This document shows positions 111-53,901 of a stretch of 64,000 nt of DNA, one piece after another. The position numbers and the translations under genes were made by a program. Each line of letters begins with the position of its first letter. The first letter of the stretch is position 1. The stretch is from Acidobacteriota bacterium (lineage in GTDB: Bacteria > Acidobacteriota > Terriglobia > Terriglobales > SCQP01), in NCBI GenBank assembly GCA_021826505.1, contig JAKAZV010000002.1, positions 231 to 64,230 of the forward strand, in the 5' to 3' direction. The notes under the pieces are model-generated. The model saw only the letters and a list, made by a program, of their open reading frames with translations. It did no database searches and had not been told where the DNA came from.

Positions 111-1613
111 TTATTTCGCCAGCCAGTGCAATAAATGGCCGGGCAGGATGCCGAGCCACAGGACCACGACGGCGCAGCAGGCCGCGCCCAGGGTCCAGGC
201 GGGGGAAGAAGCGATGGGCGGGAGCTCGCCTTCGGGCGGACGCATATACATGTACACCACCACGCGCAGGTAATACCAGGCGGCGATGACGGTGTTGACC
301 AGGGCCACGATGGCCAGGCCGATGAGATGGGCCTGGAAGGCGGACTGGAAGATGTAAAGCTTCGCCAGGAAACCGCCGGTGAAGGGAACGCCGAGCAGCG
401 AAAGCAGGAACAGCGTCATGGCCAGCGCCAGGCCGGGATGGCGTTTTCCCAGGCCCGCGAAGTCAGAGAGAGAGGTGAAACGCTCGCCGCGGTTCGCCAC
501 CCGCGCGATGACGGCAAAGGCGCCCAGATTCATGGCGGTGTATACGGTCAGATAAAACAGGATCGCGCCGACGCCCGGGCCGGCGAGAATGCCGGAGACG
601 GGCGCATGGCCGGGCAGCACACGCGGCGCCGGATTTTGCGCGATGACCGCGAAGGCGACCAGGATGTAGCCGGCCTGGGCGACGGAAGAATAGGCCAGCA
701 TGCGCTTGAGGCTGGTCTGCCGCAGGGCGCCGATGTTGCCCAAAGTCATCGAGAGAATGGCCGCAACCCACATCAGCCAGAACCATTGCTGGCTATAGCC
801 CCGCAGGGCGACGTAGAAGACGCGCAGCAGAATGACAAAGGCGGCGGCCTTGGCCGCGGTCGAGATGAAGCCGGTGACGAGGGCGGGCGCGCCTTCGTAA
901 ACATCGGGCGTCCAGACCTGGAAGGGCGCCGCCGAAACCTTGAAACCCAGGCCGACGAAGATCAGGGCGGCGGCGAGCGGAATCAGGCTGCCCAGGGCCA
1001 GGCCGCCGGCGGCCATTTTGCCGGCCAGGGACTGTCCAATGGCGGGAAGGCTGACGCTGCCGCTGGCGCCATAGAGCAGCGTGATGCCGTAGAGGAAAAA
1101 CGCCGTGGCAAAGGAGCCGAGCAGGAGGTATTTCAAGGCCGCTTCGGTGGATTTGGGCGCATGGCGGCGGTACGCGCAGAGAACGTAGCTCGAGATGGAA
1201 CTGATCTCGAGGCCGATGAAGGTCAGGATCAGATTGTCCGAGCTGACCATGAAGCCCATGCCGACGGCGGCAAACAGCAACAAGGCGTAGAACTCGCCGC
1301 GCGGATGCCCGTCGGTGCGAAGGAAATCCATGGCCAGGAGCGTGACGACGGCGACGGTGGCGAGAATGAGGATATGGAAATAAATCGAGACTGAATCCAC
1401 CCGCACCATGCCGGCAAAGGCCGTGCCGGGATAGCGGATGAGGGAAATGCCGGCGGCGAGAGCCAGGAGCGAGCCGATGAAAGCCAGGGCGCCGGCGATC
1501 CGGCCGCGGCTGCCGCCGCGGGCCGCGCCCTCGACGAGGAGGATCAAGGCGCCGAAGACGGTGAGGATGATTTCGGGCAAGATCCGGAGATAGTCCATCA
1601 GGGAGGTGGGCAT
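111..1613 (-). CDS. nuoN: NADH-quinone oxidoreductase subunit N
   Basis: 500-aa polytopic membrane ORF of the ND2/NuoN antiporter-like type. It is the last gene of the colinear nuo cluster, and its ATG overlaps the nuoM stop (TGATG). Confidence 0.9.
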   Translation of the reverse strand: MPTSLMDYLRILPEIILTVFGALILLVEGAARGGSRGRIAGALAFIGSLLALAAGISLIRYPGTAFAGMVRVDSVSIYFHILILATVAVVTLLAMDFLRTDGHPRGEFYALLLFAAVGMGFMVSSDNLILTFIGLEISSISSYVLCAYRRHAPKSTEAALKYLLLGSFATAFFLYGITLLYGASGSVSLPAIGQSLAGKMAAGGLALGSLIPLAAALIFVGLGFKVSAAPFQVWTPDVYEGAPALVTGFISTAAKAAAFVILLRVFYVALRGYSQQWFWLMWVAAILSMTLGNIGALRQTSLKRMLAYSSVAQAGYILVAFAVIAQNPAPRVLPGHAPVSGILAGPGVGAILFYLTVYTAMNLGAFAVIARVANRGERFTSLSDFAGLGKRHPGLALAMTLFLLSLLGVPFTGGFLAKLYIFQSAFQAHLIGLAIVALVNTVIAAWYYLRVVVYMYMRPPEGELPPIASSPAWTLGAACCAVVVLWLGILPGHLLHWLAK

Positions 1614-3187
1614 CAGCGGCCTCCTCTCATGCCGCGCCGAGGAGCGCGCGCTTCAACCCAGCCGGCCGGCGAGGCCGAGGGACGGCGAAGGGCCGTGGCC
1701 GTGAGACTGGTCTGGCTGAGCTCGCCGGCGACCGGAGCGATGGGACGCAGGAACCAGGGCGAGGCCACGCCCATGACCAGCATTAACACAGCCAGCATCG
1801 CCAGCAGCAGTCCCTCGCGGAAGCCGAGGCCGGGCATTTTTTGCACCGCCGCGGAGGGTTCGCCCCAGAGCGTGGCGCGGGTCCAGCGCAGCAGATACAT
1901 GACCGAGAGAATCACGCCGGTGGCGGCGATGGCGGCGACGCCATGGCGGGCCAGGAAAGAGCCGAGCAGGATGAGGAATTCGCCGACAAAGCCGTTGAGC
2001 AGGGGAAGGCCGGCGGCGGCGAGCATGATGACGATGAAAAAGCCGGCGAAGACGGGCATGGAAACGGCCACGCCGCCGTAGTCCGCGAGCTCGCAGCTTT
2101 GCCGGCGCTGCCACAGGATGCCGATGAGGCAGAACAGGCCGGCGGCGATGATGCCGTGGCTGAGCATTTGATAGATGGCGCCCTCGGCGCCAAGCTGGGT
2201 GAAGGTGAAGATGCCGACGACGATGAGGCCGAGATGGCTGAGCGAACTGTAGGCGACGAGCTTTTTCATGCCCGTCTGGACGTAGGCCACCAAGCCGCCA
2301 TAGACGATGCCGATCAGCCCCAGAACCAGAATCGGCGTGGCGAGCTGTCGAGCGGCGAAGGGAAACAACAGCACGCAGTAGCGCAGCATGCCGAAAAGAC
2401 CCATCTTGGACATGCCGCCGGCGAGCACGACGGCGGCCTCGTCGGGCGCCTCGGAGTAGGCTTCCGGCTGCCAGCCGTGAAAGGGAAAGACCGGAGTCTT
2501 GATGGCAAAGGCGATGAAGAAGCCGAGGAAAAGCCAGAGCGCGGCGGAGGAGGCCAGCGGCGAGGCCAGGGTCGAGGAGCGCAGCGCCAGCTCCCGATGC
2601 AGCGTCTGCCAGCCAAAGCTGCCGGTCAGATGATAGAGCCAGAGAATGGCCGCCAGCATGAAGACCGAGCCCAGCATGGTATAGAGAAAAAATCGCACGG
2701 CGGCGCGGCGGCGCGCCGGCCCGCCCCAGATGCCGATGAGCAGCGCCATGGGCACCAGGGAAAATTCCCAGCAGAAGTAAAAAAGGATGAGATCGAGGCT
2801 GGAAAAGACGCCCAGCATGGCGGCCTCGAGCAGGAGCAGCAGGGCAAAAAAGCCGTGGGAATATGAGGACGAACGGCGGCAGGCGAGCCAGAGGGCGATC
2901 ACGAAGAGCAGGGCGGTGAGCACGGCCATCCAGAGGCCGAGGCCGTCCACGCCGAGCGAGTAATGAATGTGGAAGGCCGGAATCCAGCGCAGGCGCTGGC
3001 GGAACTGCATGCCGCCGAGCGAGGAGTTGTAGCGCCAAGGCAGATAGAGGCTGAGCGCGAACACAGCGAGGCTCGCCAGGAGACTGAAGACGCGCGCGAA
3101 GGCAGCCGAGCGCACGAGAAAGATCAGCAGCGACGCCGCGAGCGGAATCAGCAGGAGCCAGGTGAGAATTGTGTTGTGTAGATTCAT
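1613..3187 (-). CDS. nuoM: NADH-quinone oxidoreductase subunit M
   Basis: 524-aa membrane ORF of the ND4/NuoM antiporter-like type, positioned between nuoL and nuoN. Confidence 0.9.
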   Translation of the reverse strand: MNLHNTILTWLLLIPLAASLLIFLVRSAAFARVFSLLASLAVFALSLYLPWRYNSSLGGMQFRQRLRWIPAFHIHYSLGVDGLGLWMAVLTALLFVIALWLACRRSSSYSHGFFALLLLLEAAMLGVFSSLDLILFYFCWEFSLVPMALLIGIWGGPARRRAAVRFFLYTMLGSVFMLAAILWLYHLTGSFGWQTLHRELALRSSTLASPLASSAALWLFLGFFIAFAIKTPVFPFHGWQPEAYSEAPDEAAVVLAGGMSKMGLFGMLRYCVLLFPFAARQLATPILVLGLIGIVYGGLVAYVQTGMKKLVAYSSLSHLGLIVVGIFTFTQLGAEGAIYQMLSHGIIAAGLFCLIGILWQRRQSCELADYGGVAVSMPVFAGFFIVIMLAAAGLPLLNGFVGEFLILLGSFLARHGVAAIAATGVILSVMYLLRWTRATLWGEPSAAVQKMPGLGFREGLLLAMLAVLMLVMGVASPWFLRPIAPVAGELSQTSLTATALRRPSASPAGWVEARAPRRGMRGGR

Positions 3188-3197
3188 CGCTTAAAAG

Positions 3198-3315
3198 TCC
3201 AGGGATCAGCGTCGCATATCTTTGTTTTCCGTCGCTCGGACATCCTCACATGCACACAAAGCATGCTGCGGTGTCCTCGCTCCTTCAGCCTCGATCTGCT
3301 CGCTTCTCCCTGGAC
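3198..3315 (+). repeat. Dispersed intergenic repeat copy A (full length, about 118 bp) with imperfect 15-bp terminal inverted repeats
   Basis: Core AGGGATCAGCGTCGCATATC at 3201-3220. Left end GTCCAGGGATCAGCG pairs with right end CGCTTCTCCCTGGAC (13/15). Lies in the 174-bp nuoM-nuoL spacer. Confidence 0.7.
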
Positions 3316-3361
3316 TCATAAAACAAATTTGCAACCTCAAAAAAGATCCGCAGAAAATTTC

Positions 3362-5383
3362 TCAGCGCAGCGTCAGCCAGCCCATGTAGATGACGGCGGC
3401 ACAGGCGCCGGCGGCGATCCAGGCGGCGTAGGAGCGCAGGCTGCCCGAAATCTGGCGGCGCAGTCCATCGCTGGTTTTGAGCAGGCCGCCGCCGATGCCG
3501 CGCAGGCTGCCGGCGATAAGCCCGTCATCCACGCCCCGCCACAAGACCCAGTGCGAGATGGCCCGCAGAGGGGTGATGAGCACGGCATCGAAAAACTCGT
3601 CCACCCAATATTTGTTGAAGACCAGCCGGTATAGCCCCGGCACCGCCTCGGCCCATTGCGCGGCGGCGCGGGGCCGGCGGCGGTAAAGAACCCAGGCCAG
3701 CAACAGTCCGCCGAGCGCGACGGCGATGGTGAGGGCCATGAGGGCATGCTGGACGCCCGCGGTCAGAAACGGCGGCAGCGGCCGGTACGCCACGGCGTTG
3801 GGGGTGGGCGAAAACGCCGGGGCCAGGAAATGGAGCAGACGGTCGCCCCAGTTCAGATAGCCGCCGAGCGCGGCCAGCACGGCGAGGCCGAGCAGGGGAA
3901 TGGTCATGACCGCCGGAGATTCGTGCGGGAGGGCATGACGGGGAGCGTTTTCCGGATTGCCGTGACCGCCCGCAGCGGCGGCGCCCGCCGGTTCCTGTCC
4001 GGTGGGGTGAGCGGCGGATTCCGGCGCGCCCGCGGGCGCGGGGAAGAAGGTGACGAAGAGGGCGCGGAACATGTAAAAGGCGGTGAGAAAAGCCGCCACA
4101 AGGCCGAGCGCCCACCAGATGCGGCCCGCGCCCGAGGTCGCGGCAAAAACGCGCTCGAGGATGAGGTCTTTGCTGAAATAGCCGGAAAAACCGGGAATGC
4201 CGCTGATGGCGCAGGTGGCGATCACGAAGGTCCAGAAGGTAATCGGCGCGTAGCGCTTGAGACCGCCGGGAGCGAGGGAGCGTATGCGGAAAATATCCTG
4301 CTCGCCGTGCATGGCATGAATCACGCTGCCGGCGCCGAGAAACAGCAGCGCCTTGAAAAAGGCGTGGGTCATGAGATGAAAGACGCCGGCGCCGTAGGCG
4401 GCGACGCCGCAGGCCATGAACATGTAGCCGATCTGGCTGATGGTGGAATAGGCGAGAATGCGCTTGATGTCGCGCTGCAATACGCCGATGGAGGCGGCGA
4501 AGATGGCGGTCAGGGCGCCGATGGCCAGCACCAGCGAGCGGGCGGCGGGCGAATGATCGTAGATCACCGCGGAGCGGGCGATCATGTAAACGCCGGCGGT
4601 GACCATGGTGGCGGCGTGGATGAGGGCGCTGACCGGGGTGGGACCTTCCATGGCGTCGGGCAGCCAGATGTAAAGCGGAAGCTGGGCCGATTTGCCCAGC
4701 GCGCCGACGAGCAGCAACAGCGCGATCACAGTGAGCGGCCCATGCCATCCGGATTCGACGGGGAGGGTTGCGGCGCGGGCGAAGACGGTCTGGTAGTTGA
4801 AGCTGCCGAAGCGGGCGAAGATCAGGAACAGACCGAGCAGAAAGCCGAAGTCGCCGATGCGGTTGACGACGAAGGCCTTGATGCCGGCGCGGGCCGCGGC
4901 GTCGCGGCGGAAGAAAAAGCCGATCAGGATATAGCTGGCAAAGCCCACACCCTCCCAGCCGGCGAAGAGCAACAGATAGTTGCCGGCCAGCACCAGCGTG
5001 AGCATGAAAAACAGGAACAGGTTGAGCAGGGAGAAGTAGCGGTAAAAACCGCCTTCTTCCGACATGTAGCCCAGCGAATAGAGGTGAATCAGGAAGCCCA
5101 CGCCGGTGACGATGAGCATCATCAGCAGCGAGAGCGGATCGAGAAACAGGCCGAAGGAGACGCGCAGGGGGCCGGCCAGAAACCAGGTGGCGTGAGGCTC
5201 GATATAGGGCGCGCCGGACCAGCGATGCGCCACCCAGAGCGCGGCCAGCAATGCCAGGCCGGAAAAGCCCACGCCGACGGCGCCGGCGATGGATTTGCCC
5301 CAGAGACGGCCGAAGACGAGGTTCAGCAGGAAGCCGGCAAGGCAAAGGCCAGGGACGAGCCAAAGATGGAGATTTATAGGCAT
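3362..5383 (-). CDS. nuoL: NADH-quinone oxidoreductase subunit L
   Basis: 673-aa membrane ORF of the ND5/NuoL type with a long C-terminal extension. Follows nuoK in the cluster. Confidence 0.9.
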   Translation of the reverse strand: MPINLHLWLVPGLCLAGFLLNLVFGRLWGKSIAGAVGVGFSGLALLAALWVAHRWSGAPYIEPHATWFLAGPLRVSFGLFLDPLSLLMMLIVTGVGFLIHLYSLGYMSEEGGFYRYFSLLNLFLFFMLTLVLAGNYLLLFAGWEGVGFASYILIGFFFRRDAAARAGIKAFVVNRIGDFGFLLGLFLIFARFGSFNYQTVFARAATLPVESGWHGPLTVIALLLLVGALGKSAQLPLYIWLPDAMEGPTPVSALIHAATMVTAGVYMIARSAVIYDHSPAARSLVLAIGALTAIFAASIGVLQRDIKRILAYSTISQIGYMFMACGVAAYGAGVFHLMTHAFFKALLFLGAGSVIHAMHGEQDIFRIRSLAPGGLKRYAPITFWTFVIATCAISGIPGFSGYFSKDLILERVFAATSGAGRIWWALGLVAAFLTAFYMFRALFVTFFPAPAGAPESAAHPTGQEPAGAAAAGGHGNPENAPRHALPHESPAVMTIPLLGLAVLAALGGYLNWGDRLLHFLAPAFSPTPNAVAYRPLPPFLTAGVQHALMALTIAVALGGLLLAWVLYRRRPRAAAQWAEAVPGLYRLVFNKYWVDEFFDAVLITPLRAISHWVLWRGVDDGLIAGSLRGIGGGLLKTSDGLRRQISGSLRSYAAWIAAGACAAVIYMGWLTLR

Positions 5384-5422
5384 TTCGATTTCATGCGAAC
5401 AAACCAGTATCCAATCGCGATC

Positions 5423-5505
5423 ACCGTTAATGCTTCATGAGATCCATTTCATCGAGGCTGAGGGTCTGGCGATTGCGGACGACGGCGATGATGATGGCCA
5501 GGCCC
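5423..5505. repeat. 83-bp exact direct repeat, copy 1 (relict nuoK 3' end plus stop codon)
   Basis: Base-for-base identical to 5653-5735 (offset 230 bp). Contains the last 26 nuoK codons and TAA. Confidence 0.95.
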
Positions 5506-5642
5506 GTCGCGCTTACGCGCTCCTTGGGGGCTTCGCCCCCAACGCCGGGCTTTATTAGAGCAATTCCTGCGGAATTGCTGAAATTAATGGATCGCTGCTC
5601 CCAAGAAAAAAACGTGCTCGAATTGGATATTTGTTCCAGCAT
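5427..5642 (-). pseudogene. Chimeric 71-codon ORF: 45 novel codons fused in frame to the duplicated NuoK C-terminal 26 residues
   Basis: ORF MLEQISNSSTFFSWEQRSINFSNSAGIALIKPGVGGEAPKERVSAT-GLAIIIAVVRNRQTLSLDEMDLMKH. The tail is identical to the NuoK C-terminus. No obvious Shine-Dalgarno precedes the ATG. Whether it is expressed is unknown. Confidence 0.4.
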
Positions 5643-5652
5643 GAGTGATTGA
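5506..5652. other. 147-bp unique insert between the two nuoK-tail repeats, lower GC and hairpin-rich
   Basis: Contains TTGGGGGC-ttc-GCCCCCAA (5524-5542), GCAATTCC-tgc-GGAATTGC (5560-5578) and GCGC-ttac-GCGC (5509-5520). The right half is AT-rich relative to the flanks. Confidence 0.8.
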
Positions 5653-5735
5653 ACCGTTAATGCTTCATGAGATCCATTTCATCGAGGCTGAGGGTCTGGC
5701 GATTGCGGACGACGGCGATGATGATGGCCAGGCCC
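5653..5735. repeat. 83-bp exact direct repeat, copy 2 (3' end of the intact nuoK)
   Basis: Identical to 5423-5505. Confidence 0.95.
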
Positions 5736-5959
5736 ACGGCGGCTTCGGCAGCCGCCACCACCATGACAAAAAAGACGAACAGGTTGCCGGTCATGTCGCG
5801 CAGGTAATGGCTGAAGGCGATGAGCGACAGATTGACGGCATTGAGCATGAGCTCGATTGAGATGAAGACCGAGATGAGGTCGGATTTGACGATGAATCCG
5901 GCGACGCCGAGCGTGAACAATATGCCGCTGAGGATCAAGTAATAAGACAGGGGAATCAT
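5657..5959 (-). CDS. nuoK: NADH-quinone oxidoreductase subunit K
   Basis: 100-aa three-helix ORF (MIPLSYYLILSGILF...) of the ND4L/NuoK type. ATGA overlap with nuoJ. Confidence 0.9.
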   Translation of the reverse strand: MIPLSYYLILSGILFTLGVAGFIVKSDLISVFISIELMLNAVNLSLIAFSHYLRDMTGNLFVFFVMVVAAAEAAVGLAIIIAVVRNRQTLSLDEMDLMKH

Positions 5960-6513
5960 AGACCGCTCCTGTCAGCCGCTTTCACGGCAGGCGTATCCGT
6001 GCCGGAGGATTGAGTTTCCGGGCGGGCGGCCAAGAGGACCGCGCCGGCGATGCCAACCAGAAACAATACCGAAGTCGCCTCGAAGGGCAGCAGGCCCTGG
6101 TGAAACAGCGCCTGGCCGATGCTGCGCACATGGAACATGGGGCTGCCGGCGGCGAGGCGGGCGCGGGAATAGCGCAGGGCGAAGGCGGCCGCGAGGATGC
6201 CGAGCAGGATGAAGATGGCGGGCAGGCCGAGGCGGCGGGCGAAGCGCGCGCGCTCATGCGGCGGCAGCGGCTGGGCGTTGAGCAGCATGATGACAAAGAC
6301 GAAGAGCACCATGATGGCGCCGGCGTAGACCAGAATCTGCACGAAGGCGATGAACTCGGCTCCGAGCAGCAGATAGAGGACCGCCAGCGCGCCCATGACC
6401 AGAATCAGCGAAAGCGCTCCGTAAATGGGCGAGCGGCTGCGCAGCATATTGATGCCGCCGGCGACGGCCAGGGCGCCAAAGATGAGAAAGAGGATGAGCT
6501 GCAGGTTCAGCAT
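5956..6513 (-). CDS. nuoJ: NADH-quinone oxidoreductase subunit J
   Basis: 185-aa membrane ORF of the ND6/NuoJ type. Starts 4 nt after the nuoH stop. Confidence 0.85.
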   Translation of the reverse strand: MLNLQLILFLIFGALAVAGGINMLRSRSPIYGALSLILVMGALAVLYLLLGAEFIAFVQILVYAGAIMVLFVFVIMLLNAQPLPPHERARFARRLGLPAIFILLGILAAAFALRYSRARLAAGSPMFHVRSIGQALFHQGLLPFEATSVLFLVGIAGAVLLAARPETQSSGTDTPAVKAADRSGL

Positions 6514-6517
6514 GGCG

Positions 6518-7540
6518 TCATCTCCAGGCCACCACCAGGCTGGTTATCAGCACATTGGCGAGCGCCACCGGCACCAGCACCTTCCAGCCCAGGGCCATGA
6601 GCTGATCGTAGCGGAAGCGGGGCAGGGTGCCGCGCACCCAGATAAACAGAAACAGGAAGAACGCTGCCTTGAGGCAGAACCAGAAAAGCGGCAGCACGAT
6701 CCGGCTGAGCCAGACGGGGCCGAAGACCGGCCCGGCCCAGCCGCCGAGAAAAACCAGCGTGGCCACGCAGCTCACCGTGATCATGTTGGCGTATTCGGAG
6801 AAGAAAAACAGCGCGAACTTCATGGCGCTGTATTCGGTGTGGTAGCCGGCGCCCAGCTCGCCTTCCGCCTCGGGCAGATCGAAGGGGATCCGGTTGGTTT
6901 CGGCGAAGGCGGCGGTGAGATAGATCAGAAAGGCCACGATCTCGGGCAGGATGAACCAATGGCCGCCGGCCTGGGCGGCGACGATTTTGCGCAGATCGAG
7001 GCTGCCGGCCAGAAGAACCGGGCCGACGAGGGCCAGGCCGAGGGCCAGTTCGTAGCTCACCATCTGCGAGCCGGCGCGGAGCGAGCCGAGCAGGGAATAT
7101 TTGCTGTTGGAGCTCCAGCCAGCGAGCACGATGCCGTAAACGCCGAGCGAGGTTACGCCCAGGATGAAGAGCAGGCCGACGTTGATGTTCGTGATCTGCA
7201 GCGGAGTGGTGTAGCCGAAGATGTGAATGACGGGGCCGAAGGGAATGACCGCGATTGAAAGCAGCGCCAGCGTCACCGAAATGGCGGGAGCGAGCAGATA
7301 GAGGCCGGAGGAGGTCTGGCTGGGGGTGATATCTTCCTTGAGCAGCAGCTTGAAGGTGTCGGCCAAAGGCTGGAGCAGGCCCCAGGGACCGACGCGGGTG
7401 GGACCGACCCGCGACTGCATGCGGGCCACAATGCGGCGCTCGGCGAGCTGCACGTAGGCAATCAGCGAGGCCATGACCGCAAGCGAGAGCACGGTCTTGA
7501 TCAGCGCAATCAGTAGATAGATCTTAAGCGGCATCTGCAT
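6518..7540 (-). CDS. nuoH: NADH-quinone oxidoreductase subunit H
   Basis: 340-aa ND1/NuoH-type membrane ORF (...[15 protein letters not shown]..., ...[15 protein letters not shown]...). Confidence 0.9.
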
Positions 7541-7553
7541 TGGTTAAGGGCGA

Positions 7554-7602
7554 AGGGATAAGCTTCGCATAGCTGTGTTATTCGTCGCCCGGCAATCCTC
7601 AT
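7554..7602 (+). repeat. Dispersed intergenic repeat copy B (truncated)
   Basis: Core AGGGATAAGCTTCGCATAGC at 7554-7573, then TTCGTCGCCCGGCAATCCTCA, which matches module 2 of copies A and C. Lies in the nuoH-nuoG spacer. Confidence 0.7.
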
Positions 7603-7617
7603 GGTCATTCATCAGGC

Positions 7618-9945
7618 TCATTGGGCGTCGTTTGTCTCATGGCGTTCCATGACGGAGTTCAACAAAACGCTGCGGCGGGCCAGCTCGCCATCGGTGAATA
7701 AGGTCTGGCCGCGGGCGAGCCCGTCGGCGGAGCGGGTCCAGGGCGTGGCCGAAATCCGGACCAGCGGAGAAGCATCCACGGAAGATTGCGGCGGCAGATG
7801 GCTGAGCGCGCCGGCGCCGGAGTGAAGCTGGACCCAGGAAACATCGTAGCCGGGGACATGGGCACGAATTTCCTGGAAGATGCGCTCCGGGCTGGAAGTG
7901 CCCAGATCATGGCCGAGCAAGGCGGACAGTTCATGGATGATTTCGAGATCGCTTTTGGCGCCCTCGAAATCCGCGGCGCGGCGCTGCCATTGCACCTCGC
8001 CGCAGGTGTTGGTCAGGGTGCCGGATTTTTCATAGGCGCAGAGAGCGGGCAGCACAACATCGGCGGCGGCGGCGGTTTCGGTCAGAAACAGATCCTGCAC
8101 CACGAGAAAGCCCTTGCGCCGGCCGGGAGCGGCGTCGAAGCCATGGCGGCGCAGGGGGTTGGCGCCGACGATGTAAAGGCCGTCAAGATCGCCGCGATTG
8201 AAGGCGTCGAGCATGCCGGCGGCATCCAGGCCCGGCTCAGAAGGCAAGGGCCCACCCCAGAGACGCTCCCATTGCGCGGCGGCGGGCGAGCTCAAGGGAG
8301 CGTAGCCGGGAAGCAAGCCGGGATAAAGACCCATGTCGGATGCGCCGCGGGAGTTGGCATCGTGCGCGAGCGCGATATAACGGGTTTGGCCGGGGAGGGA
8401 AGCGCCGAGCTGAACCAGCGAAGCGAGCGCGGCGGCCTGCACCTGCGGGCTGAAGACGATGATGACGTCCGATTCCTGGCGCAGGGCGGCGAGAAATTCC
8501 GGCAGGCCGTCAGGAAGCTGCGATATGGGCGATACCGGCGTAATGGGCCAGGTGTTGATGGCGGCGGGAGGGACGGAGGTGAGCTGCGCGGCGGGCGCAG
8601 CACCCGAGCCGGCGAGAAAGGCGAGCGCGGCATCGAAACCAGAGGCCGCGACCTGGGCGTAGCGATGGGCCTGGCGGCGCAGCTTGATATCGCCGGCATT
8701 CAGGATATAAAGACGGGAGGCGTGGAGGCGATAGGCCCAGCGGAGATTCCAGGCCAGCAAGGGATGCTCCTGGGTGGGATCACCGCCGACGAGCAGCACC
8801 GCTTTGGCGGTTTTAAGATCCTGGCTGGAGGCCCAGGGCGTTGCGGAGGATGAAGCGTGACGCGCGAGCGCAGCCAGAAAGCCGGGAAGATCGGCGGAGC
8901 GGGAGTGGTCGAGATGGTTAGTTTTGAGCGCCAGACGGGCGAGTTTCTGGAGCTGATAATGTTCTTCATTGAGCAGGCGGGTTGAGCCCAGCACGCCCAC
9001 GCCCTGCTGCTGACGGGCGGCGAGCAGGCCCTGAGCGGCGGCTTCGAGCGCCATGGCCCAACTGGCGGGACGCAACTCGCCCTGGCGGCGGACCAGAGGC
9101 TGGCGCAGACGGGCCTCGCCGCGGGTGAAATCGAAGCCGTAGCGGCCCTTGATGCAGAGAAAATCGCCGTTGATGCCGCTTTTGTCGCGGTTGTCGCCGC
9201 GCATGATCTGGCCGTTGCGCACGCCCAGAGTGGTCTTGCAGCCATCGCCGCAGAAAGTGCAGATCGAGCCGGTGTGGCGCATTTCCCAGGGCCGGGTTTT
9301 ATAGCGATAGGGGCCGCTGGTGAGAGCGCCGACGGGGCAGATGTCTATGCACATGCCGCATTCTTCGCACTCGAGATGGTCCTGGCGGTTGGGGATGATG
9401 GACGAGCCGACGCCGCGCTGGCCGCCGAGGGCCAGCGCCCAGACATCCATGCCCTCGCCGCAGACGCGCACGCAGCGGTAACAGAGAATGCAACGCGGGC
9501 GATCGAAGTAGACGACCGGAGACCATTGCTGCTCGTCGCGATGCGCCTTGGGCTCCTCGAACCGGCTTTCGGCGGCGCCGTAGCGGAAGGTCATGTCCTG
9601 CAGCTCGCACTGGCCGCCGGCGTCGCAGACGGGACAGTCGAGGGGATGGTTGGTGAGAATGAACTCGATCGAGGACTTGCGGGCCTGATGCACAACCGGG
9701 GTATCGGTTTTGACCACCATGCCTTCGGTGACGGTGACGGTGCAGGCGGTCTGCGGCTTGGGGGTTTTTTCGATCTCGACCAGACACATGCGGCAGGCGG
9801 CCTGGAGGGAAAAATTGGGGTAATAGCAGAAGGAGGGAACTTCGATCTGGTTCGCGCGGCAGACTTCGATGAGAAGGGAGCCGGCGGGCGCCTGGACGGG
9901 GCGGCCGTTAATCGTGAGGTTAACCATTTGCGGCGGTTCAGGCAT
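7618..9945 (-). CDS. nuoG: NADH-quinone oxidoreductase subunit G (75-kDa Fe-S subunit)
   Basis: 775-aa ORF. N-terminal 2Fe-2S and 4Fe-4S cysteine motifs (CPVCDAGGQCELQ, CILCYRCVRVC, CEECGMCIDICP) plus a molybdopterin-oxidoreductase-like domain. The start could instead be the MVNLTING methionine 6 codons downstream. Confidence 0.9.
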   Translation of the reverse strand: MPEPPQMVNLTINGRPVQAPAGSLLIEVCRANQIEVPSFCYYPNFSLQAACRMCLVEIEKTPKPQTACTVTVTEGMVVKTDTPVVHQARKSSIEFILTNHPLDCPVCDAGGQCELQDMTFRYGAAESRFEEPKAHRDEQQWSPVVYFDRPRCILCYRCVRVCGEGMDVWALALGGQRGVGSSIIPNRQDHLECEECGMCIDICPVGALTSGPYRYKTRPWEMRHTGSICTFCGDGCKTTLGVRNGQIMRGDNRDKSGINGDFLCIKGRYGFDFTRGEARLRQPLVRRQGELRPASWAMALEAAAQGLLAARQQQGVGVLGSTRLLNEEHYQLQKLARLALKTNHLDHSRSADLPGFLAALARHASSSATPWASSQDLKTAKAVLLVGGDPTQEHPLLAWNLRWAYRLHASRLYILNAGDIKLRRQAHRYAQVAASGFDAALAFLAGSGAAPAAQLTSVPPAAINTWPITPVSPISQLPDGLPEFLAALRQESDVIIVFSPQVQAAALASLVQLGASLPGQTRYIALAHDANSRGASDMGLYPGLLPGYAPLSSPAAAQWERLWGGPLPSEPGLDAAGMLDAFNRGDLDGLYIVGANPLRRHGFDAAPGRRKGFLVVQDLFLTETAAAADVVLPALCAYEKSGTLTNTCGEVQWQRRAADFEGAKSDLEIIHELSALLGHDLGTSSPERIFQEIRAHVPGYDVSWVQLHSGAGALSHLPPQSSVDASPLVRISATPWTRSADGLARGQTLFTDGELARRSVLLNSVMERHETNDAQ

Positions 9946-9965
9946 AAGGATTCAAATTCGCGATC

Positions 9966-11267
9966 TCAGGCCGATTGCGGCTCCAGAGCCGCAGGGGCCG
10001 GGCACGCGGCGGTCGCGGCATGCGCCTCGAACTCGGCGCGGAACTTGCGCACAATGGCCAGAATGGGCATGGCGGCGGCATCGCCAAGCGGACAGAAGGT
10101 GCGGCCCAGAATGTTCGAGGCAACATCCTCAAAGAGCTTGATGTCGGCCGGACGGCCCTGGCCGGCATGAAAACGGCCGATGGCCTGCGCCAGCCAGTGG
10201 GTGCCCTCGCGGCAGGGCACGCACCAGCCGCAGGATTCATGACGGTAGAAACGGATGATGCGCAGGGCAAACTTGACCATGCAGGTATCCCGCGCCAGGA
10301 CCACGACGCCGCCGGAGCCGAGAAAGGTGCCCAGCCTGGCGACAGAGTCGTAGTCCATGTTGAGGCCCGCGGTTTCCGCCGCAGTCAGAATCGGAGTGGA
10401 AGAACCGCCGGGCACGATGGCCTTGAGCGGCTTGCCTTCGAGGATGCCGCCGCCGACTTCCTGGAGCATGCGTTCGAGCGGAAAGCCGAGCGGCAGCTCG
10501 TACACGCCGGGCTGGTTGATGTGGCCGCTGAGACAAAACAGGCGCGTGCCGCCGTTTTTGGGCGGGCCGTAGGCCGCGTACCAGGCGCCGCCGCCGCGCA
10601 GAATGTGCGGAACGGTGGCCAGGGTCTCGACGTTGTTGATGACGGTGGGACCGCCGTAGAGGCCGACGATGGCGGGAAAAGGCGGCTTGAGACGGGGCAG
10701 GCCGCGCTTGCCCTCGAGCGATTCCATCAGCGCCGATTCCTCGCCGCACTCGTAGGCGCCGGCGCCGGAATGGGTATAGAGAAAGAAGTCCATGCCCGAG
10801 CCGCGTATGTTTTTGCCGAGATAGCCGGCGGCGTAAGCCTCTTCGAGCGCGCGATCCACGATGGCGAAAAGATAGCGGTATTCACCGCGGATGAAGATGT
10901 AGCCCTGCCGGGAGCCGATGGCGCGGGCGGCGATGGTCATGCCCTCAATAATCGAAAACGGATCCCACTCCATGACCAGGCGGTCTTTGCAGGTGCCGGG
11001 CTCGCTCTCGTCGGCGTTGCAGAGAATGTATTTGGGCCTGGCCGACTGTTTGGGCACGAAGGACCACTTCATGCCGGTGGGAAAGCCGGCGCCGCCGCGG
11101 CCGCGCAGGCCGCTGGCCTTCATTTCCTCGACGATCTGCTCGGGCGTCATGGCCAGGGCTTTTTCGAGGCCCTGATAGCCCTCGTCGGCGAGATAGCCGG
11201 CCAGCGTGCGCGCCTCGGGGTTGCCGAAGCGGCGGCTGACGATGCGGATTTCAGCAGGATGAGGCAT
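9966..11267 (-). CDS. nuoF: NADH-quinone oxidoreductase subunit F (51-kDa NADH/FMN subunit)
   Basis: 433-aa ORF with GLRGRGGAGFPTG and the ESCGWCVPCREG N3-cluster motif. Confidence 0.92.
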   Translation of the reverse strand: MPHPAEIRIVSRRFGNPEARTLAGYLADEGYQGLEKALAMTPEQIVEEMKASGLRGRGGAGFPTGMKWSFVPKQSARPKYILCNADESEPGTCKDRLVMEWDPFSIIEGMTIAARAIGSRQGYIFIRGEYRYLFAIVDRALEEAYAAGYLGKNIRGSGMDFFLYTHSGAGAYECGEESALMESLEGKRGLPRLKPPFPAIVGLYGGPTVINNVETLATVPHILRGGGAWYAAYGPPKNGGTRLFCLSGHINQPGVYELPLGFPLERMLQEVGGGILEGKPLKAIVPGGSSTPILTAAETAGLNMDYDSVARLGTFLGSGGVVVLARDTCMVKFALRIIRFYRHESCGWCVPCREGTHWLAQAIGRFHAGQGRPADIKLFEDVASNILGRTFCPLGDAAAMPILAIVRKFRAEFEAHAATAACPAPAALEPQSA

Positions 11268-11282
11268 GGATTCGTTCAGCCA

Positions 11283-11361
11283 AGGGATCAGCGTCGCATA
11301 GCTTCGTTGAGCATAACTTTTAACAAAACCTTCGGTTTTGTTCGCCGCTCAGACATCCTCG
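11283..11361 (+). repeat. Dispersed intergenic repeat copy C (with an internal insertion)
   Basis: Core AGGGATCAGCGTCGCATAGC at 11283-11302. Internal AAAACC-TTCG-GTTTT hairpin. Module 2 is TTCGCCGCTCAGACATCCTCG. Lies in the 121-bp nuoF-nuoE spacer. Confidence 0.7.
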
Positions 11362-11388
11362 GATACAGAACCAATGATGATGGCATGA

Positions 11389-11898
11389 TCAATCGCCGGA
11401 GGCGCCTTTCCGGCGGTAGCCATCGAGGATTTGATCCACTTTTTCAGGCGTGAGCTGCTGGTGAAAATCGTAGTTGACCTGCATCGCCGGCGCCCAGGAA
11501 CAGGCGCCGATGCATTCGACTTCTTCGAGCGAAAAAACGCCGTCGGGGGTGGTCTGATGATTTTCGAGCTGGAGCCGGGCGCGGCAGTGATCCCAGATGC
11601 GGTCGGCGCCGCGCAACTGGCAGCTGATGTTGGTGCAAACCTGCACATGGTAGCGGCCGGCGGGATGCAGGCGCAGCATGGAGTAGTAGCCGATGACCTC
11701 GCGCACCGCCAGCTCGTCGAGCTCGAGCCGGGCGGCGATGCCGCGGATGACTTCAGGGGTGAGATGGCCCAGCTCGTCCTGGGCGTAGAGCAGCATGGGC
11801 ACCAGGGCCGAGCGCTTGACCGGATAATGCGCGATCATGGCGTCGAAGCGCGCCCGCAGGGCGGGGCTGAGCATGTCGAGATTGGGGCCAGGCTGCAT
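11389..11898 (-). CDS. nuoE: NADH-quinone oxidoreductase subunit E (24-kDa 2Fe-2S subunit)
   Basis: 169-aa thioredoxin-like ORF with CTNISC ... ECIGAC cysteine motifs. Confidence 0.9.
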   Translation of the reverse strand: MQPGPNLDMLSPALRARFDAMIAHYPVKRSALVPMLLYAQDELGHLTPEVIRGIAARLELDELAVREVIGYYSMLRLHPAGRYHVQVCTNISCQLRGADRIWDHCRARLQLENHQTTPDGVFSLEEVECIGACSWAPAMQVNYDFHQQLTPEKVDQILDGYRRKGASGD

Positions 11899-11917
11899 AG
11901 CGTTTTCGCGGGCCGGT

Positions 11918-13150
11918 TCAGCGGTCGGTTTCTCCCAGAACGATATCGAGGCTGCCGATGACGGCCACGACGTCGGCGAGCAGGCGGCCCTCGACCATGC
12001 GGGCCAGGGATTGCAGGTTGGCGTAGCTGGGGCAGCGCATGTGAACGCGGTACGGCCGGGAAGTGCCGTCGGAGACGATGTAATAGCTCATGATGCCGCG
12101 CGGCGACTCGACCGCCTGAAACGCCTGGCCGGCGGGAACGCGGAAGCCCTCGGTCACGATTTTAAAGTGATAGATGAGGGCTTCCATCTCGGATTTCATC
12201 TTGTCGCGGTCGGGCAGCACGATGCCGGGCGCCTGGGCCTTGAAGGGGCCTTCGGGCAGGCCGGCCATGGCCTGGGTGACGATTTTGACGCTTTCCCGCA
12301 GCTCGGCCAGGCGCACCAGATAGCGGGCATAGACGTCGCTTTCGGTGCGCACCGGGACGCTGAAGTCAAATTCCTGATAGCCGGAGTAGGGCTGGGTTTT
12401 GCGCAGATCGAGCGGGACGCCGGCGGCGCGCAGGCAGGGTCCGGTGAGACCGGCGGCGATGGCGTCGGCGGCGCTGATCACTCCCACGCCGCGGGTGCGG
12501 CCCATCCAGATGGAGTTGCGGGTGAGCAGGGTTTCGTATTCGTCAATTTTGGCGGAGAAGCCGGAGATGAAGGCGCGGACGCGCTCGAGCAGGCCGAGCG
12601 GCGGCTCCAGGGCCAGCCCGCCGATGCGGAAATACGAGGTCATCATGCGCTGGCCGCTGGCCATTTCAAAAATTTTGAGGATCTCTTCCCGCTCGCGGAA
12701 GGTATAGAGAAACATGGTCATGGCGCCGATATCGAGAGCGTGGGTGCCCAGCCAGACCAGATGGCTGTTGATGCGGGTCAGCTCATTGAGCAGAACCCGG
12801 ACCCATTGCGCCTTACGGGGAATTTCCAGACCCAGCAGTTTTTCGACCGTCAGAACGTAGCAAAGATTGTTGGTGAGCGGGCAGAGATAGTCTATGCGGT
12901 CGGTGAGGGTGACCACTTGCTGATAGAGCTTGGACTCGCAGCTTTTTTCGATGCCGGTGTGCAGATAGCCGATGACGGGCCGCACCCGCACCACCACTTC
13001 ACCGTCAATTTCCAGCACCAGGCGCAGGACGCCGTGGGTGGAGGGATGCTGCGGCCCCATGTTGAGGATGAGATGGCCGGCACGCGGAGCCTGACCGGGT
13101 TCAAGCAGAGAATCGAAGCCGGAGACGGAGCCGGAGGCGAACGCGCTCAT
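11918..13150 (-). CDS. nuoD: NADH-quinone oxidoreductase subunit D (49-kDa subunit)
   Basis: 410-aa ORF (...[15 protein letters not shown]...). ATGA overlap with nuoC. Confidence 0.92.
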
Positions 13151-13737
13151 CGGTAACCCTCCACCGGATAGTCTTTGCGCAAGGGGTGGCCTTCCCAGTC
13201 ATCGGGCATCAGGATGCGGCGCAGGTCGGGATGATGGGCAAAGCGGATGCCGAACATATCGAAGATTTCGCGCTCGAACCAATCGGCCGCCGGCCAGAGG
13301 GAATAAACCGAAGAGGCGATGCCGGGACCGGGAGTGGTTTCGCGAATGGGTTCGGGCAGATGGGCGGGACCCGAGGAGACGGGAGCGGGCGCGGAGACGG
13401 CATCGGATTCCTCGACCCCGCTCAGGATGCGCAGCCAGACGCCGCGGCGGGTCGAATAAAGCTGATAGACCAGCTCGAAGCGGGGCACGGCGCCGAGCCG
13501 GTCCACCGCGGTCAGGTCCACGAGAAGATCGAATTGCTGGCCGGGATCGTCGCGCAGAAACCGCAAAACGGAAAGCAGGCGCGGGGAGTGAATCCAGAGG
13601 CTGAGCTCGCCGCGCAGGTCTTCGAAACGCTCGAGCGCGCCGGGCAAGGCGGCTTCGAGCCGGGCAACGACATCCGGGGGAGCGGGGGGCGCGGGTTCGC
13701 TGGAGGGAGCCGGAGGAACGGGAGGTTCGGCGCTCAT
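13147..13737 (-). CDS. nuoC: NADH-quinone oxidoreductase subunit C (30-kDa subunit)
   Basis: 196 aa counted from the internal ATG at 13737, which forms an ATGA overlap with the nuoA stop. Carries the [26 protein letters not shown] motif. The longer 277-aa ORF would overlap nuoA. Confidence 0.85.
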
Positions 13738-14159
13738 TCCGCCCTTTCCGGCGTGTTCCAGTCGAACACGCCTTTTTTCCAGATATAGAGGAAGCCGGTC
13801 ATCACGATGGCCAGATAGATGGCCATTTCCGCGAAGCCAAACCAGCCCAGGCCGCGATAGACGACCGCCCAGGGCAGCAGGAAGACGGCTTCGATATCGA
13901 AGAGAATGAAGACGATCGCCACCAGATAAAATTTGACCGCGAAGCGGTGCCGCGCGTCGCCTTCCGGGGTGATGCCGCATTCGTAGGGCGAGAGCTTGCG
14001 CCGGGTGTTGCGATGCCGGCCGAGCAGCCAGGAAGCGCCGATGGCCAGACCGGCAAAGGCCATGGCGAAGATGAACTGAATCAGGAGGGGAACGTAATGG
14101 AGAATGTAGGGCGCGCCGGCGGGCAGGGAGTTCGGATTGACGGCGGCCAGCAGGTTCAT
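13734..14159 (-). CDS. nuoA: NADH-quinone oxidoreductase subunit A
   Basis: 141-aa three-helix ORF with the SPYECG motif (ND3/NuoA). First gene of the cluster. Confidence 0.88.
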
Positions 14160-18413: not shown

Positions 18414-18433
18414 AGGGATAAGCTTCGCATAGC
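18414..18433 (+). repeat. Dispersed intergenic repeat copy D (core only)
   Basis: AGGGATAAGCTTCGCATAGC, identical to the core of copy B. Lies between the hypothetical gene and the BNR gene. Confidence 0.65.
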
Positions 18434-33955: not shown

Positions 33956-36900
33956 TTTAGCCGGGGCCGGGATTGGGGGGCTCACGCGGCGGTGTTTCAG
34001 CGCCCACAACCGCAAACGGTCCATGTACAGGTAGATCACCGGGGTGGTAAATAAAGTCAGCAACTGCGAAACCAGCAGACCGCCAACGATGGTCACCCCC
34101 AGCGGCTGGCGAAATTCCGATCCCATGCCGGTGCCCACCGCCAGCGGCAAGGCTCCGAACATGGCGGCCAGCGTGGTCATCAGGATGGGCCGGAAGCGCA
34201 GCACGGCGGCTTCATAAATGGCTTCATCGGGTGAGCGCTGCTTTTTGCGCTCGGCATCGAGGGCGAAATCAATCATGATGATGGCGTTTTTCTTTACAAT
34301 CCCGATCAACAGCAAAATGCCGATCAGGGCGATCACCGTGAGCTGGAGATGAAACACCAGCAGCGCCAGCAAAGCTCCCACGCCGGCCGAAGGCAGCGTG
34401 GACAATATGGTGATGGGGTGAATATAGCTTTCGTAAAGGATGCCGAGGACAAGGTAAACCGCGATCAGGGCGGCGGCGATCAGATAAGGCTCATTGGCCA
34501 GCGAAACCTGAAATTGCTGGGCGGTACCGGCAAAGCTGGCTTTTAATCCCGGCGGCGGATGAAGACGCGCCTCGGCGGCGGTGACGGCCGTGACCGCGGC
34601 GCCCAGCGAGGATTTACGGGCGAGATTGAACGATAAAGTCACCGCCGGCAATTGCCCCTGATGATTGACCTGGAGGGCGGTATTGCTGGGGACGGCCCGC
34701 ACCAACTCCTTCAGCGGGATCATCGTTCCGGAACTCGCCGGCACATAAAGCTCGCTGAGCACGCCGGGATCGCGGCGGAAAGATCGCGGCACGGTCAGCA
34801 CGACATGATACTGATTCAGGCCGGTGTAGATGGTGGAGACTTCGGCCTGGCCGAAGGCGTCATACAGGGTGCGATCCACCGACTGCATGGGCACACCCAG
34901 CCGGGCGGCGAGAGACCGGTTCACGATCAGGCGCAGCTCCAGGCCGGAATATTGCTGATCGGTATTCACATCGCGGAGCATGGGCAGCTTGCGCAGGGCG
35001 GCGAGTATGCGCGGTGACCACTGCCGAAGCTCCGTGAGGTTGTCATCTTCCAGCGTGTACTGATATTGCGAACCGGTGAGGCGCCCGCCAATGTTGATGT
35101 CCTGAATCGGCTGCATGAACAGGCGCACGCCGGGAATGCGGGTCAGGCGCGGCCGCATCTGGGCGATAAAGGCTGCCGAGCTGATCTTGCGCTGGCTGAG
35201 CGGCTTGAGCTGGATAAACATCCGGCCGATGTTCAGTCCCCCGCCCCCGCCGGTAAACGAAGCAACGGTTTTCACGGCGGGGTTTTTCAGCACGATATCC
35301 ACCAATTGCTTCTGCTTGCGGGCCATGGCGTGAAAGGAAATATCCTGCTCCGCCTGGACCATGCCCATCACGCGGCCGGTATCTTCCTGGGGGAAAAATC
35401 CTTTGGGAACGGCGATGTAAAGATATACGGTGAGAATGGCGGTGGCGATGGTGACGGCCAGGGTCAGCGGCGCGTGGCGCAGGACCCAGCGCAACGCTGC
35501 GGCATACGCGTTGCGCAGCCGTTCGAAGCCGCTTTCCGCGGCCCGGTACAGCCAGTTATGCCGGCGCCCTTTTTCCTGCTGCAGAAAATGGGCGCAGAGC
35601 ATGGGCGTGGTGGTCAGCGACAGCCAGAGGGAAACCAGAATGGCCACGCTCAGGGTGACGGCGAATTCGCGAAACAGACGCCCGACGATGCCGCGCATCA
35701 GCAGCACGGGAATGAAGACCGCGATCAGCGAAGTGCTCATCGAGAGCACGGTAAAGCCGATTTCACGGGCGCCGTGCAAGGCGGCCTGAAAAGGCGTATC
35801 GCCGGCGTCCAGATAACGGTCAATATTTTCGATGACCACGATGGCGTCATCCACCACGAAGCCAGTGGAAATGGTCAGCGCCATGAGCGATAAATTGTCG
35901 AGGCTGTAGCCCAGCAGGTACATGAAGGCCAGCGTGCCCATCACCGAAAGCGGCAGCGCGATGCTGGGTATGGCAGTGGCGCGGGGATTGCGGAGGAAAA
36001 AGAATATCACCAGGACCACCAGCACGAGGGCGACCAGCAGCGTCCATTCGACGTCGCGGACGGATGAACGGATCTCAAGCGAACGGTCGGAAAAGACGCG
36101 CATGTGAATGGCGGCGGGAATGGCGGCCTGCAGGCTGGGCAGCAGCGCCTTGATGCGATCCACCATGCGCACGATGTTGGCGCCCGGCTGCTGCACGATG
36201 AAGACAATCACGGCGTGATGGCCGTTGGCCAACCCGGCGACCTCGGTGTTGAGGACGCTGTCGCGCACCGTGCCGATATCCTTCAGCAGCACCGGCGAAC
36301 CGTTGCGATACGAGACCACCAGGCCGCGATACTGGGCGGCCCGCACCTGCTGATCGTTGGCGGAGATGGTATAGCTATGGCGGCCGTTCCAGAGCATGCC
36401 CTTCGGCAGATTCACATTGGCCGCCGAGAGCGCCGCCTGCACCTGGAGCAGGCTCAGGCCGTAGCTGGCCAGCCGGGCCGGATTCACGGTGACGCGGACG
36501 GCGGGCTGGGCGGCGCCGGAGACGAAGACTTCGCCCACGTCCGGAACCTGGGCGATTTTTTGCGCCAGCACGCTGTCGGCGGCGTCATAAATCTGCGGCA
36601 ACGCGAGAGTCGGCGAGCTCAGCACCAGCAGCAGAGCGGGCGCATTAGCGGGGTTGACCTCGCGGTAGGTGGGCTTCATCGGCAGATCGGCGGGCAGATT
36701 GGCGGTGGCGGCGTTGATGGCGGCCTGGACGTCGCGGGCGGCGCCGTTAATATTGCGGCTGAGGGCGAACTGGAGGGTGATATTGGTGCTGCCGAGCGAA
36801 CTGCTGGAGGTCATTTCGGTGAGCCCGGCGATGCGGCCGAACTGACGTTCCAGCGGGGCGGCGACCGAGGAGGCCATGACCTCGGGGCTGGCGCCGGGCA

Positions 36901-53841: not shown

Positions 53842-53901
53842 ACAGGGATAAGCATCGCATAGCGGCGTTGGAAACCGCTCGGCTCTGCTCGCTTTCTCCC
53901 T
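53842..53901 (+). repeat. Dispersed intergenic repeat copy E (short full-length form, 60 bp)
   Basis: Core AGGGATAAGCATCGCATAGC at 53844-53863. The ends CAGGGATAAGC and GCTTTCTCCCTG are inverted repeats. The right end matches copy A (CTGCTCGCTTYTCCCTG). Confidence 0.7.

Follow-up and report, generated by a model that had tools for sequence, protein, structure and literature searches.

An exact 83-bp direct repeat brackets an orphan 147-bp insert at the nuoK-nuoL junction of an Acidobacteriota nuo operon

Structure of the nuoK-nuoL junction

The DNA analysed here is a stretch of 64,000 nucleotides from an Acidobacteriota bacterium (GenBank assembly GCA_021826505.1, contig JAKAZV010000002.1, positions 231 to 64,230), referred to below as the window. 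It carries a nuo operon on the minus strand, its genes recognised by Pfam on identical proteins, and at the junction of nuoK and nuoL lie two direct repeats of 83 bp, 230 bp apart from start to start, with 147 bp between them (hereafter I147). The coordinates of these and all other features are collected in Table 1. The two repeats are 100% identical, as an earlier reading made from the letters of the DNA (the sequence-only reading) had claimed base for base, and they are the sole exact repeat of 24 bp or longer, direct or inverted, in the whole window, well outside what chance would give. The same reading had assigned to each copy the last 26 codons of nuoK and the TAA stop. The stop is there, but the coding part is slightly shorter: each copy consists of the last base of the 26th codon, 25 complete codons, TAA and the four bases CGGT.

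Copy 1 is contiguous with the body of nuoK and supplies the TAA stop of the real gene at 5657-5659, so that it is this copy that the intact nuoK uses, as had been proposed. The same 100-residue NuoK protein is encoded by genomes with and without the insert. Behind copy 2 stand 39 nt and the ATG of nuoL, a sequence identical to that behind the one nuoK tail of empty-site genomes, and these 39 nt, together with the CGGT inside the repeat, make up the 43-nt spacer of the empty alleles. The ancestral nuoK-stop/nuoL junction therefore does lie beside nuoL, and nuoL retains its native 43-nt leader and 83 nt of upstream context despite I147. Compared with relatives that have the empty 43-bp spacer, the locus has gained 230 bp while nuoK remained intact, which is the net effect that the sequence-only reading had described.

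Table 1. Features of the nuoK-nuoL junction, the surrounding nuo operon and the B elements. Positions refer to the window unless a contig is named.
Feature	Position	Strand	Remarks
nuoK coding sequence, 100 amino acids, intact	5657..5959	-	open reading frame (ORF); Pfam PF00420 on identical protein; 3' end is repeat copy 1
Direct repeat copy 1	5653..5735	-	functional nuoK tail
I147	5506..5652	-	orphan insert; AT-rich nuoK-proximal part, GC-rich hairpins nuoL-proximal
Hairpin 1	5559..5579		perfect 9-bp stem, 3-nt loop (AGCAATTCC-NNN-GGAATTGCT); perfect 13-bp stem in L100
Hairpin 2	5524..5542		perfect 8-bp stem, 3-nt loop (TTGGGGGC-NNN-GCCCCCAA)
Hairpin 3	5509..5520		4-bp stem; GCGC-TTAC-GCGC on the plus strand (GCGC-GUAA-GCGC in mRNA)
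Chimeric 71-codon ORF	5427..5642	-	46 codons specified by I147, fused in frame to a 25-codon nuoK tail
Direct repeat copy 2	5423..5505	-	pseudo-tail, untranslated or translated in the 71-codon ORF; adjoins the ancestral spacer
Ancestral nuoK-nuoL spacer	5384..5422	-	identical in empty allele L008 and window
nuoL	3362..5383	-	intact; ancestral upstream context kept
nuoM	1613-3187	-
nuoJ	5956-6513	-
nuoH	6518-7540	-	Pfam on identical proteins
nuoG	7618-9945	-	Pfam on identical proteins
B element, window	3188-3361		nuoL-nuoM spacer
B element, L003	3304-3483
B element, L105	~1321-1500
B element, L016	341-515
B 3' box	3201-3219	-
B 3' box	7554-7572	-
B 3' box	11283-11301	-
B 3' box	18414-18432	-
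B 3' box	53844-53862	-

Carriers, empty alleles and age of the insertion

An exact look-up of the NuoK protein led to contigs from many samples of one study. About 25 population contigs were compared, namely ENA assemblies of the series ERZ2723xxxx, with MEGAHIT-style names beginning with k141_, and NCBI metagenome-assembled genomes (MAGs) of the series GCA_0273xxxxx. By junction alignment, three states of the nuoK-nuoL spacer were found. The 230-bp gain is present as in the window in L004, L007/L011, L010/L012, L013, L014, L015, L016 and L100. The empty 43-nt spacer is present in L001/L101, L002, L005, L006, L008, L009/L104, L102, L103 and L106. In L003 and L105, the nuoK stop is closely followed by another insert of about 137 bp, the B element. 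The carrier samples include ERZ27237140, ERZ27233573, ERZ27237103, ERZ27236853, ERZ27237230 and ERZ27237250; GCA_027389575.1 and GCA_027389535.1 are carrier MAGs, and GCA_027314065.1 is an empty MAG nested among the carriers. This alignment, which the sequence-only reading had proposed as a check, finds the 230 bp absent from empty-site genomes that are 1-2% divergent.

The duplication-insertion is real and not an assembly error. It occurs in at least nine independent assemblies from different samples, it lies well inside long contigs (up to 45 kb among the fetched loci, and probably 78.9 kb for that of the window) and its boundaries are identical in all carriers. Four haplotypes of I147 are present among the carriers, with variation at positions 38 and 54 and a CT>GA dinucleotide change in L100. 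Also, position 37 of the repeat shows a synonymous C>T in copy 1 of L007/L011 and L014 and not in copy 2. From the four haplotypes and the copy-specific single-nucleotide polymorphism (SNP), the carriers are not clones. The names of the contigs indicate that the final assembly was probably made with k = 141, and because this exceeds 83, the behaviour of de Bruijn assemblers implies that the junctions across the repeat would be supported by reads. What speaks for a false duplication assembled around a short repeat, the artefact that the sequence-only reading had named as an alternative, is that the short contigs L014-L016 and L100 break near the site, and that one contig of the same study has a faulty end: positions 1-205 of L010/L012 are chimeric, with an inverted piece of nuoG (window 8069-8190) joined to the 5' end of nuoH, so that 89 bp falsely appear as an exact repeat at a distance of 827 bp. 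Contig ends here can thus bear artefactual repeats. Against the number of samples, the haplotypes, the SNP in copy 1 and the position inside long contigs, we regard the probability of an artefact as negligible.

SNP distances were evaluated over 2.2 kb upstream and the 2 kb of nuoL, and five carriers have both flanks in full. These five and L008, which has an empty site, form one clade with at most 9 differences per 2 kb (divergence of at most 0.4%), while the other empty alleles are about 1.5-2% from this clade and L003 is about 1% from it. Since the boundaries are identical and the carriers belong to one clade of at most 0.4% divergence, the event has a single origin. By this comparison of alleles, the 230-bp gain is a recent event that occurred once, within one species, in the ancestor of one sub-lineage. 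The segregating sites among the carriers number 2 in the 147 bp of I147 (1.36%), 18 in 4742 bp of flanking coding DNA (0.38%) and 1 in the 166 bp of both repeats. From the diversity of the clade, drift should produce about one difference over the 166 bp of repeat, which is the number observed, so gene conversion is not needed to explain the likeness of the copies. The sequence-only reading had offered a recent event, ongoing gene conversion or an artefact as reasons for the zero divergence, and only the first of these is retained.

Two alleles depart from the simple division into carriers and empty sites. L008 is empty although it is nested in the carrier clade, and it carries the derived T that is also present in copy 1 of L007 and L014. 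Recombination between the repeats, with precise loss of the insert, would explain this allele, and so, equally well, would ordinary allele exchange. L016, a contig of 535 bp that is treated with caution, has I147 and copy 2 followed by a B-type spacer. Its copy 2 may have recombined with another haplotype, or the unit may have entered separately; the contig is short and either explanation is given with the same caution.

Sequence properties of the insert

The sequence-only reading had called the insert foreign-looking. In terms of guanine-plus-cytosine (GC) content, this description fits the nuoK-proximal 80 nt (39%) but not the remaining 67 nt (64%), as the average of the window is 62%. I147 is rich in palindromes, being in the top 0.16% of all 147-bp windows, and it is the most hairpin-dense 147 bp of the window. 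The hairpin with the 9-bp stem lies mostly within the AT-rich part, and the 8-bp and 4-bp stems lie in the GC-rich, nuoL-proximal part. Neither hairpin 1 nor hairpin 2 has a second occurrence within the window when up to three mismatches are allowed, and a family of hairpins of the repetitive extragenic palindromic (REP) kind was rejected because the I147 hairpins are unique there. No pair joining both ends of I147 was found in a scan of the region for inverted repeats, which leaves the insert without terminal inverted repeats. No sigma-70-like promoter consensus and no intrinsic terminator consensus was found in I147. A scan with Rfam at gathering thresholds gave no match in the window, the best sub-threshold E-values being above 0.005 and belonging to implausible families.

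Two observations on pairing within and around the insert are added here. At 5557-5558 (about 36-37 in L100), L100 differs at two adjacent bases, CT>GA in the nuo direction, and this change extends hairpin 1 from its 9-bp stem to a perfect 13-bp palindrome. We take the pattern to be the signature of a quasipalindrome template-switch mutation, that is, a "correction". Also, the left part of I147, the AT-rich segment 5622-5645, is partly complementary to the ancestral spacer at 5391-5417 (TCATGC/GAACAAA/TATCCAAT; 21 matches in three blocks), and in the predicted fold of the mRNA this complementarity gives a long-range stem that encloses copy 2 and the remainder of the insert. The inverted similarity between I147 and the adjacent spacer is marginal, with p of about 0.05 uncorrected for four tests, and it is not relied on.

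Over the full 147 bp, two reading frames have no stop codon, one in the nuo direction and one on the opposite strand. The former gives the chimeric 71-codon ORF, which is the sole ORF listed in I147; no recombinase is encoded. Its 46th codon ends in the first base of the repeat, and it has been called as a gene in other assemblies. A Pfam search with it gave no match. The ORF is probably not a gene.

These properties bear on whether the insert is selected in the nuo mRNA, either as a hairpin cluster for processing or stability, or through the 71-codon ORF, which could restore termination-reinitiation to nuoL. Such a reading concerns the persistence of the insert and not its origin, and it could be combined with any of the others. 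It would agree with the folding of the 273-nt nuoK-nuoL spacer with the insert, which is better than that of 200 out of 200 shuffled sequences (z = -2.8), with a 71-codon ORF that no haplotype interrupts and whose stop falls at the ancestral stop position, 43 nt upstream of nuoL, and with a nuoL start that has no obvious Shine-Dalgarno sequence. However, the clade and the species also hold empty alleles, and the diversity of I147 is at least as high as that of its flanks, which gives no sign of constraint. Both SNPs inside the ORF (2/2) are non-synonymous, no Shine-Dalgarno sequence lies upstream of it, it has no homologue, and there is the lack of an Rfam match. We therefore consider selection for a function in the mRNA improbable.

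Searches for a donor or parent element

The sequence-only reading had suggested a BLASTN search of the insert for a parent element. No other copy was found on either strand of the 64-kb window or in about 100 fetched loci, and there was no match in GenBank phages or PLSDB plasmids; the search was thus carried out on these collections and no parent element was recovered. Four different blocks of I147 gave no match in IMG/VR viral contigs. An exact 23-mer of I147 had no match in the representative genomes of GTDB, an exclusion that is incomplete since the 23-mer overlaps the dinucleotide that is polymorphic in L100. A 25-mer was also absent from JGI metagenomes, which is uninformative as that collection is also without the nuoK tail of this species. 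On the protein level, the 46 insert-specific residues were compared with 5.8 billion proteins and matched only their own cluster, which is present on 6 contigs, all at this locus, and the opposite-strand frame had no match among the same proteins. A captured gene fragment was rejected on this ground, neither open frame having another homologue.

The tail of nuoK was also followed as a possible attachment site. Searches of the IMG/VR viral contigs with a 26-mer of the tail and with the NuoK protein returned nothing, and a phage or island carrying the nuoK tail as attP was rejected accordingly. No full-length element occupies the nuoK site in any of the approximately 25 population contigs. The neighbours within about 10 kb of the repeats are only nuo genes, Uma2, MacB/FtsX and melibiase.

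Several other candidates were tried and rejected. I147 as a diverged member of the B family gave alignment scores equal to those of shuffled sequences. I147 as a decayed upstream copy of nuoK, from a 230-bp tandem duplication, shows no similarity to the body of nuoK. Patchwork or snap-back synthesis from the flanks was rejected as there is no excess of shared 8-10-mers. For a diversity-generating retroelement, there is no reverse transcriptase nearby, and for a group II intron, the Rfam scan, which included its models, was negative. For integron attC and dif/Xer sites, no matching core sites were seen by eye.

Distant relatives

Beyond the population, the nearest species representatives retrieved have NuoK proteins of only 44-67% identity and belong mostly to Acidobacteriota (Pyrinomonadaceae, Terriglobia and Bryobacteraceae), in agreement with the phylum that the sequence-only reading had assumed. 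For the 70 loci with a nuoL downstream, the start of this gene is mostly at -8 to +131 nt from the nuoK stop. A second nuoK tail, even a diverged one, is present in 0 of 80 distant-relative loci. The sequence-only reading had considered an old, fixed arrangement conserved across distant relatives as the opposite outcome; with empty sites in the close relatives and no tail duplicate in any of the 80, this does not apply. Recurrent duplications of the nuoK tail elsewhere were also rejected, since short NuoK fragments on long contigs were traced to frameshift-ridden long-read assemblies.

Other material does lie between nuoK and nuoL in the phylum. In five loci from Pyrinomonadaceae-type and unclassified Acidobacteriota MAGs (L024, L027, L037, L040 and L053), one or two unrelated small genes encoding 157-448 amino acids are inserted. 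Two unannotated ORF types recur among them: one starts MLNA(D/E)VLTFQEFVMHEPLPLSK... and is common to L027 and L037, and the other starts M(P/A)(V/I)...RRA.P.DA... and is common to L024 and L053. From the B element in L003/L105 and the whole genes in these relatives, the nuoK-nuoL junction generally tolerates insertions, and on this comparison insertions seem to recur there throughout the phylum.

Other features of the window

The B elements consist of an AT-rich leader followed by an imperfect hairpin of about 100 nt, in which a 5' box (AGGGAGAAGCGAGCAGA) pairs with a 3' box (CTATGCGAMGCTKATCCCT). Four pairs of the hairpin show compensatory changes among only three copies. Between strains, B is polymorphic at both the nuoL-nuoM and the nuoK-nuoL junctions; for example, the nuoL-nuoM spacer is 8 bp in the clade of L001 and 174 bp in the clade of the window. 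There is no Rfam match for the B element. The family looks like a REPIN or a miniature inverted-repeat transposable element (MITE), and it is unrelated to I147. Five occurrences of the B 3' box (CTATGCGAnGCTnATCCCT), all on the minus strand, are present in the window, when 0.13 occurrences are expected by chance. Three of the boxes lie 11-23 nt upstream of the start codons of nuoM, nuoH and nuoF, the downstream genes having been checked for these three. This bias in orientation and position suggests a role at the RNA level or in translation initiation, or else a strong preference of insertion.

According to Pfam, the order of the operon is nuoA-C-D-E-F-G-H-J-K-L-M-N (window approximately 1613-14159; L011 1484-15532). 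In the precomputed Pfam annotation, there is no NuoB (PF01058) between A and C and no NuoI (ferredoxin-type) between H and J. Since the genes of NuoB and NuoI are not in the operon, they must be encoded elsewhere. Farther along the window, exact repeats of 19-23 nt at 34188-34210, 35871-35890 and 36681-36699 each occur again about 3153-3162 bp downstream, and the constant spacing of approximately 3.16 kb suggests two tandem paralogous genes or gene blocks.

Discussion

We tentatively favour a one-off illegitimate event, independent of any recombinase, in which 83 bp at the end of nuoK were duplicated in tandem and 147 bp were captured at the junction. The points in its support are the single origin, the single locus, and the lack of both machinery and constraint. 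In the arrangement itself, one contiguous stretch of the target stands twice, head to tail, and the non-homologous DNA lies precisely where the two copies meet. Tandem duplications with filler or templated DNA at the junction are products of end-joining or of fork stalling and template switching, best described in eukaryotes. The nuoK structure resembles them in the head-to-tail duplication, in the non-homologous DNA at the junction and in needing one event without dedicated machinery, but it differs in that the filler is long (147 bp) and is not copied from the flanks.

Two molecular routes can be inferred for such an event. Unequal end-joining between sister chromosomes could have captured a fragment, or replication could have switched template twice, returning 83 nt behind its point of departure. 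Whatever the route, copy 1 completes nuoK and copy 2 preserves the ancestral sequence upstream of nuoL. As no terminator is present in I147, the operon should still be read through, and the 83-bp repeats can recombine to delete the insert precisely. Under all the readings considered here, the insert is tolerated because nuoK is intact, nuoL keeps its native leader and nothing in I147 resembles a terminator. It apparently persists as a harmless insertion, judging from these sequence features. The data hold no evidence of mobility or function for I147, and it is not an active mobile element.

Several points weigh against the duplication-insertion. There is no donor for the 147 bp on either strand of the 64-kb window and no patchwork or excess of words shared with the flanks; the lack of a local donor argues against local template switching. 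The searches for copies took in the collections listed above and not the whole genomes of the carrier population. The right end of the repeat lies 4 nt past the stop, which would be roughly a 5-10% coincidence under random breakpoints filtered for viability, while it is expected if the repeats are attachment sites. Also, to our knowledge, tandem duplications with a long insert at the junction are rarely documented in bacteria.

The alternative that the position of this repeat end favours is a remnant of integration of the att or Campbell type. Exogenous DNA with a nuoK tail would have recombined within the 83 bp to give attL and attR, and a near-total deletion would have left the two ends of the element as the 147 bp. 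Phage 21 and e14 in icd of E. coli are examples of integration at the 3' end of a gene that leaves a direct repeat. Islands flanked by a repeat of the 3' end of the target gene, and cis-mobilizable elements that have no integrase but retain attL and attR, have also been documented, for example, the ssrA islands of Dehalococcoides (PMC3146451). I147 is like these integrative elements in that its flanking repeats represent the 3' end of the target through the stop and 4 nt beyond, that the gene is reconstituted and that relatives have a precisely empty site. The two-part composition (39% and 64% GC) is what two joined ends of an element would give, the insert is an orphan and partly foreign in composition, and precise excision could account for L008, the empty allele within the carrier clade.

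On the other hand, I147 differs from such elements in its length of only 147 bp and in lacking an integrase and cargo. No recombinase lies inside the repeat-bounded segment, where the 71-codon ORF is the only ORF, or next to it, among the nuo genes. Neither an autonomous relative nor an attP using the same site was found in the viral contigs, the phages and plasmids, the population contigs or the 80 relatives, the whole population genomes being outside this search. The two copies are those of the host allele, with no diverged tail borne by an element. The nuoK site is in the middle of a 12-gene operon, and integration there would cut nuoL, nuoM and nuoN from their promoter, which makes it a poor site for an integration system to have evolved. 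Finally, a second event is needed, namely a near-total internal deletion that spared both repeats. The sequence-only reading had compared the locus to such att-type elements and had already remarked on the missing recombinase. The geometry fits and the recombinase is indeed missing, but an element is not demonstrated, as neither a carrier of the nuoK tail nor a full-length occupant was found in the collections and contigs searched. We regard an att-type remnant as the main rival, somewhat less probable than the duplication-insertion; the data are explained about equally well by the two.

Readings in which the insert itself moves receive less credence. A miniature non-autonomous unit of 230 bp, made up of I147 and one tail, could have been moved in trans to the 3' end of nuoK by a recombinase, or there could be an insertion mechanism with target duplications of about 80 bp. 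If this were true, the spacer haplotype of L016 and the allele L008 would reflect re-integration and excision and not homologous recombination, and a recombinase-mobilised I147 would be an unusually small integrating unit. We consider this quite improbable.

More doubtful still, and to our mind very improbable, is a MITE- or REP-like element, or one of a new type, with an 83-bp target-site duplication. I147 is small, rich in palindromes and inserted 4 nt past a stop, bracketed by a duplicated target as transposons and MITEs are. The unrelated B elements start at comparable places, with 2 nt between the nuoK stop and the element in L003 and none between the nuoL stop and the element at that junction. 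However, the duplication is 83 bp compared with the typical 2-15 bp, and we know of no bacterial transposase with target duplications near 83 bp; the literature on "long target site duplication" was found to concern casposons and eukaryotic retroelements. Terminal inverted repeats were not detected, and I147 is a single copy at one insertion site in all the data, with the reservation that the GTDB 23-mer is polymorphic and the JGI collection is without this population, so that the exclusion of further loci is incomplete. In having perfect short hairpins between the cistrons of an operon, I147 is also like REP sequences, bacterial interspersed mosaic elements (BIMEs) and REPINs, but its hairpins recur nowhere in the window, and the REPIN-like element here is the unrelated B family.

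A last resemblance is to diversity-generating retroelements, which have near-identical repeats of approximately 80-130 bp with a short spacer in between, one repeat forming the 3' end of an ORF. The nuoK repeats are identical and do not differ at adenines, the only variant being C/T. As a target, NuoK is a conserved membrane subunit and no variable ligand-binding protein, and the reverse transcriptase is missing from the neighbourhood.

As it stands, the structure is a strain marker and a mutational curiosity, not a new system. As a clean natural case, the locus illustrates how a respiratory operon can tolerate DNA inserted at the end of one of its essential cistrons. With three states of one junction and a REPIN-like family, the intercistronic spacers of the nuo operon are unusually dynamic within one species.

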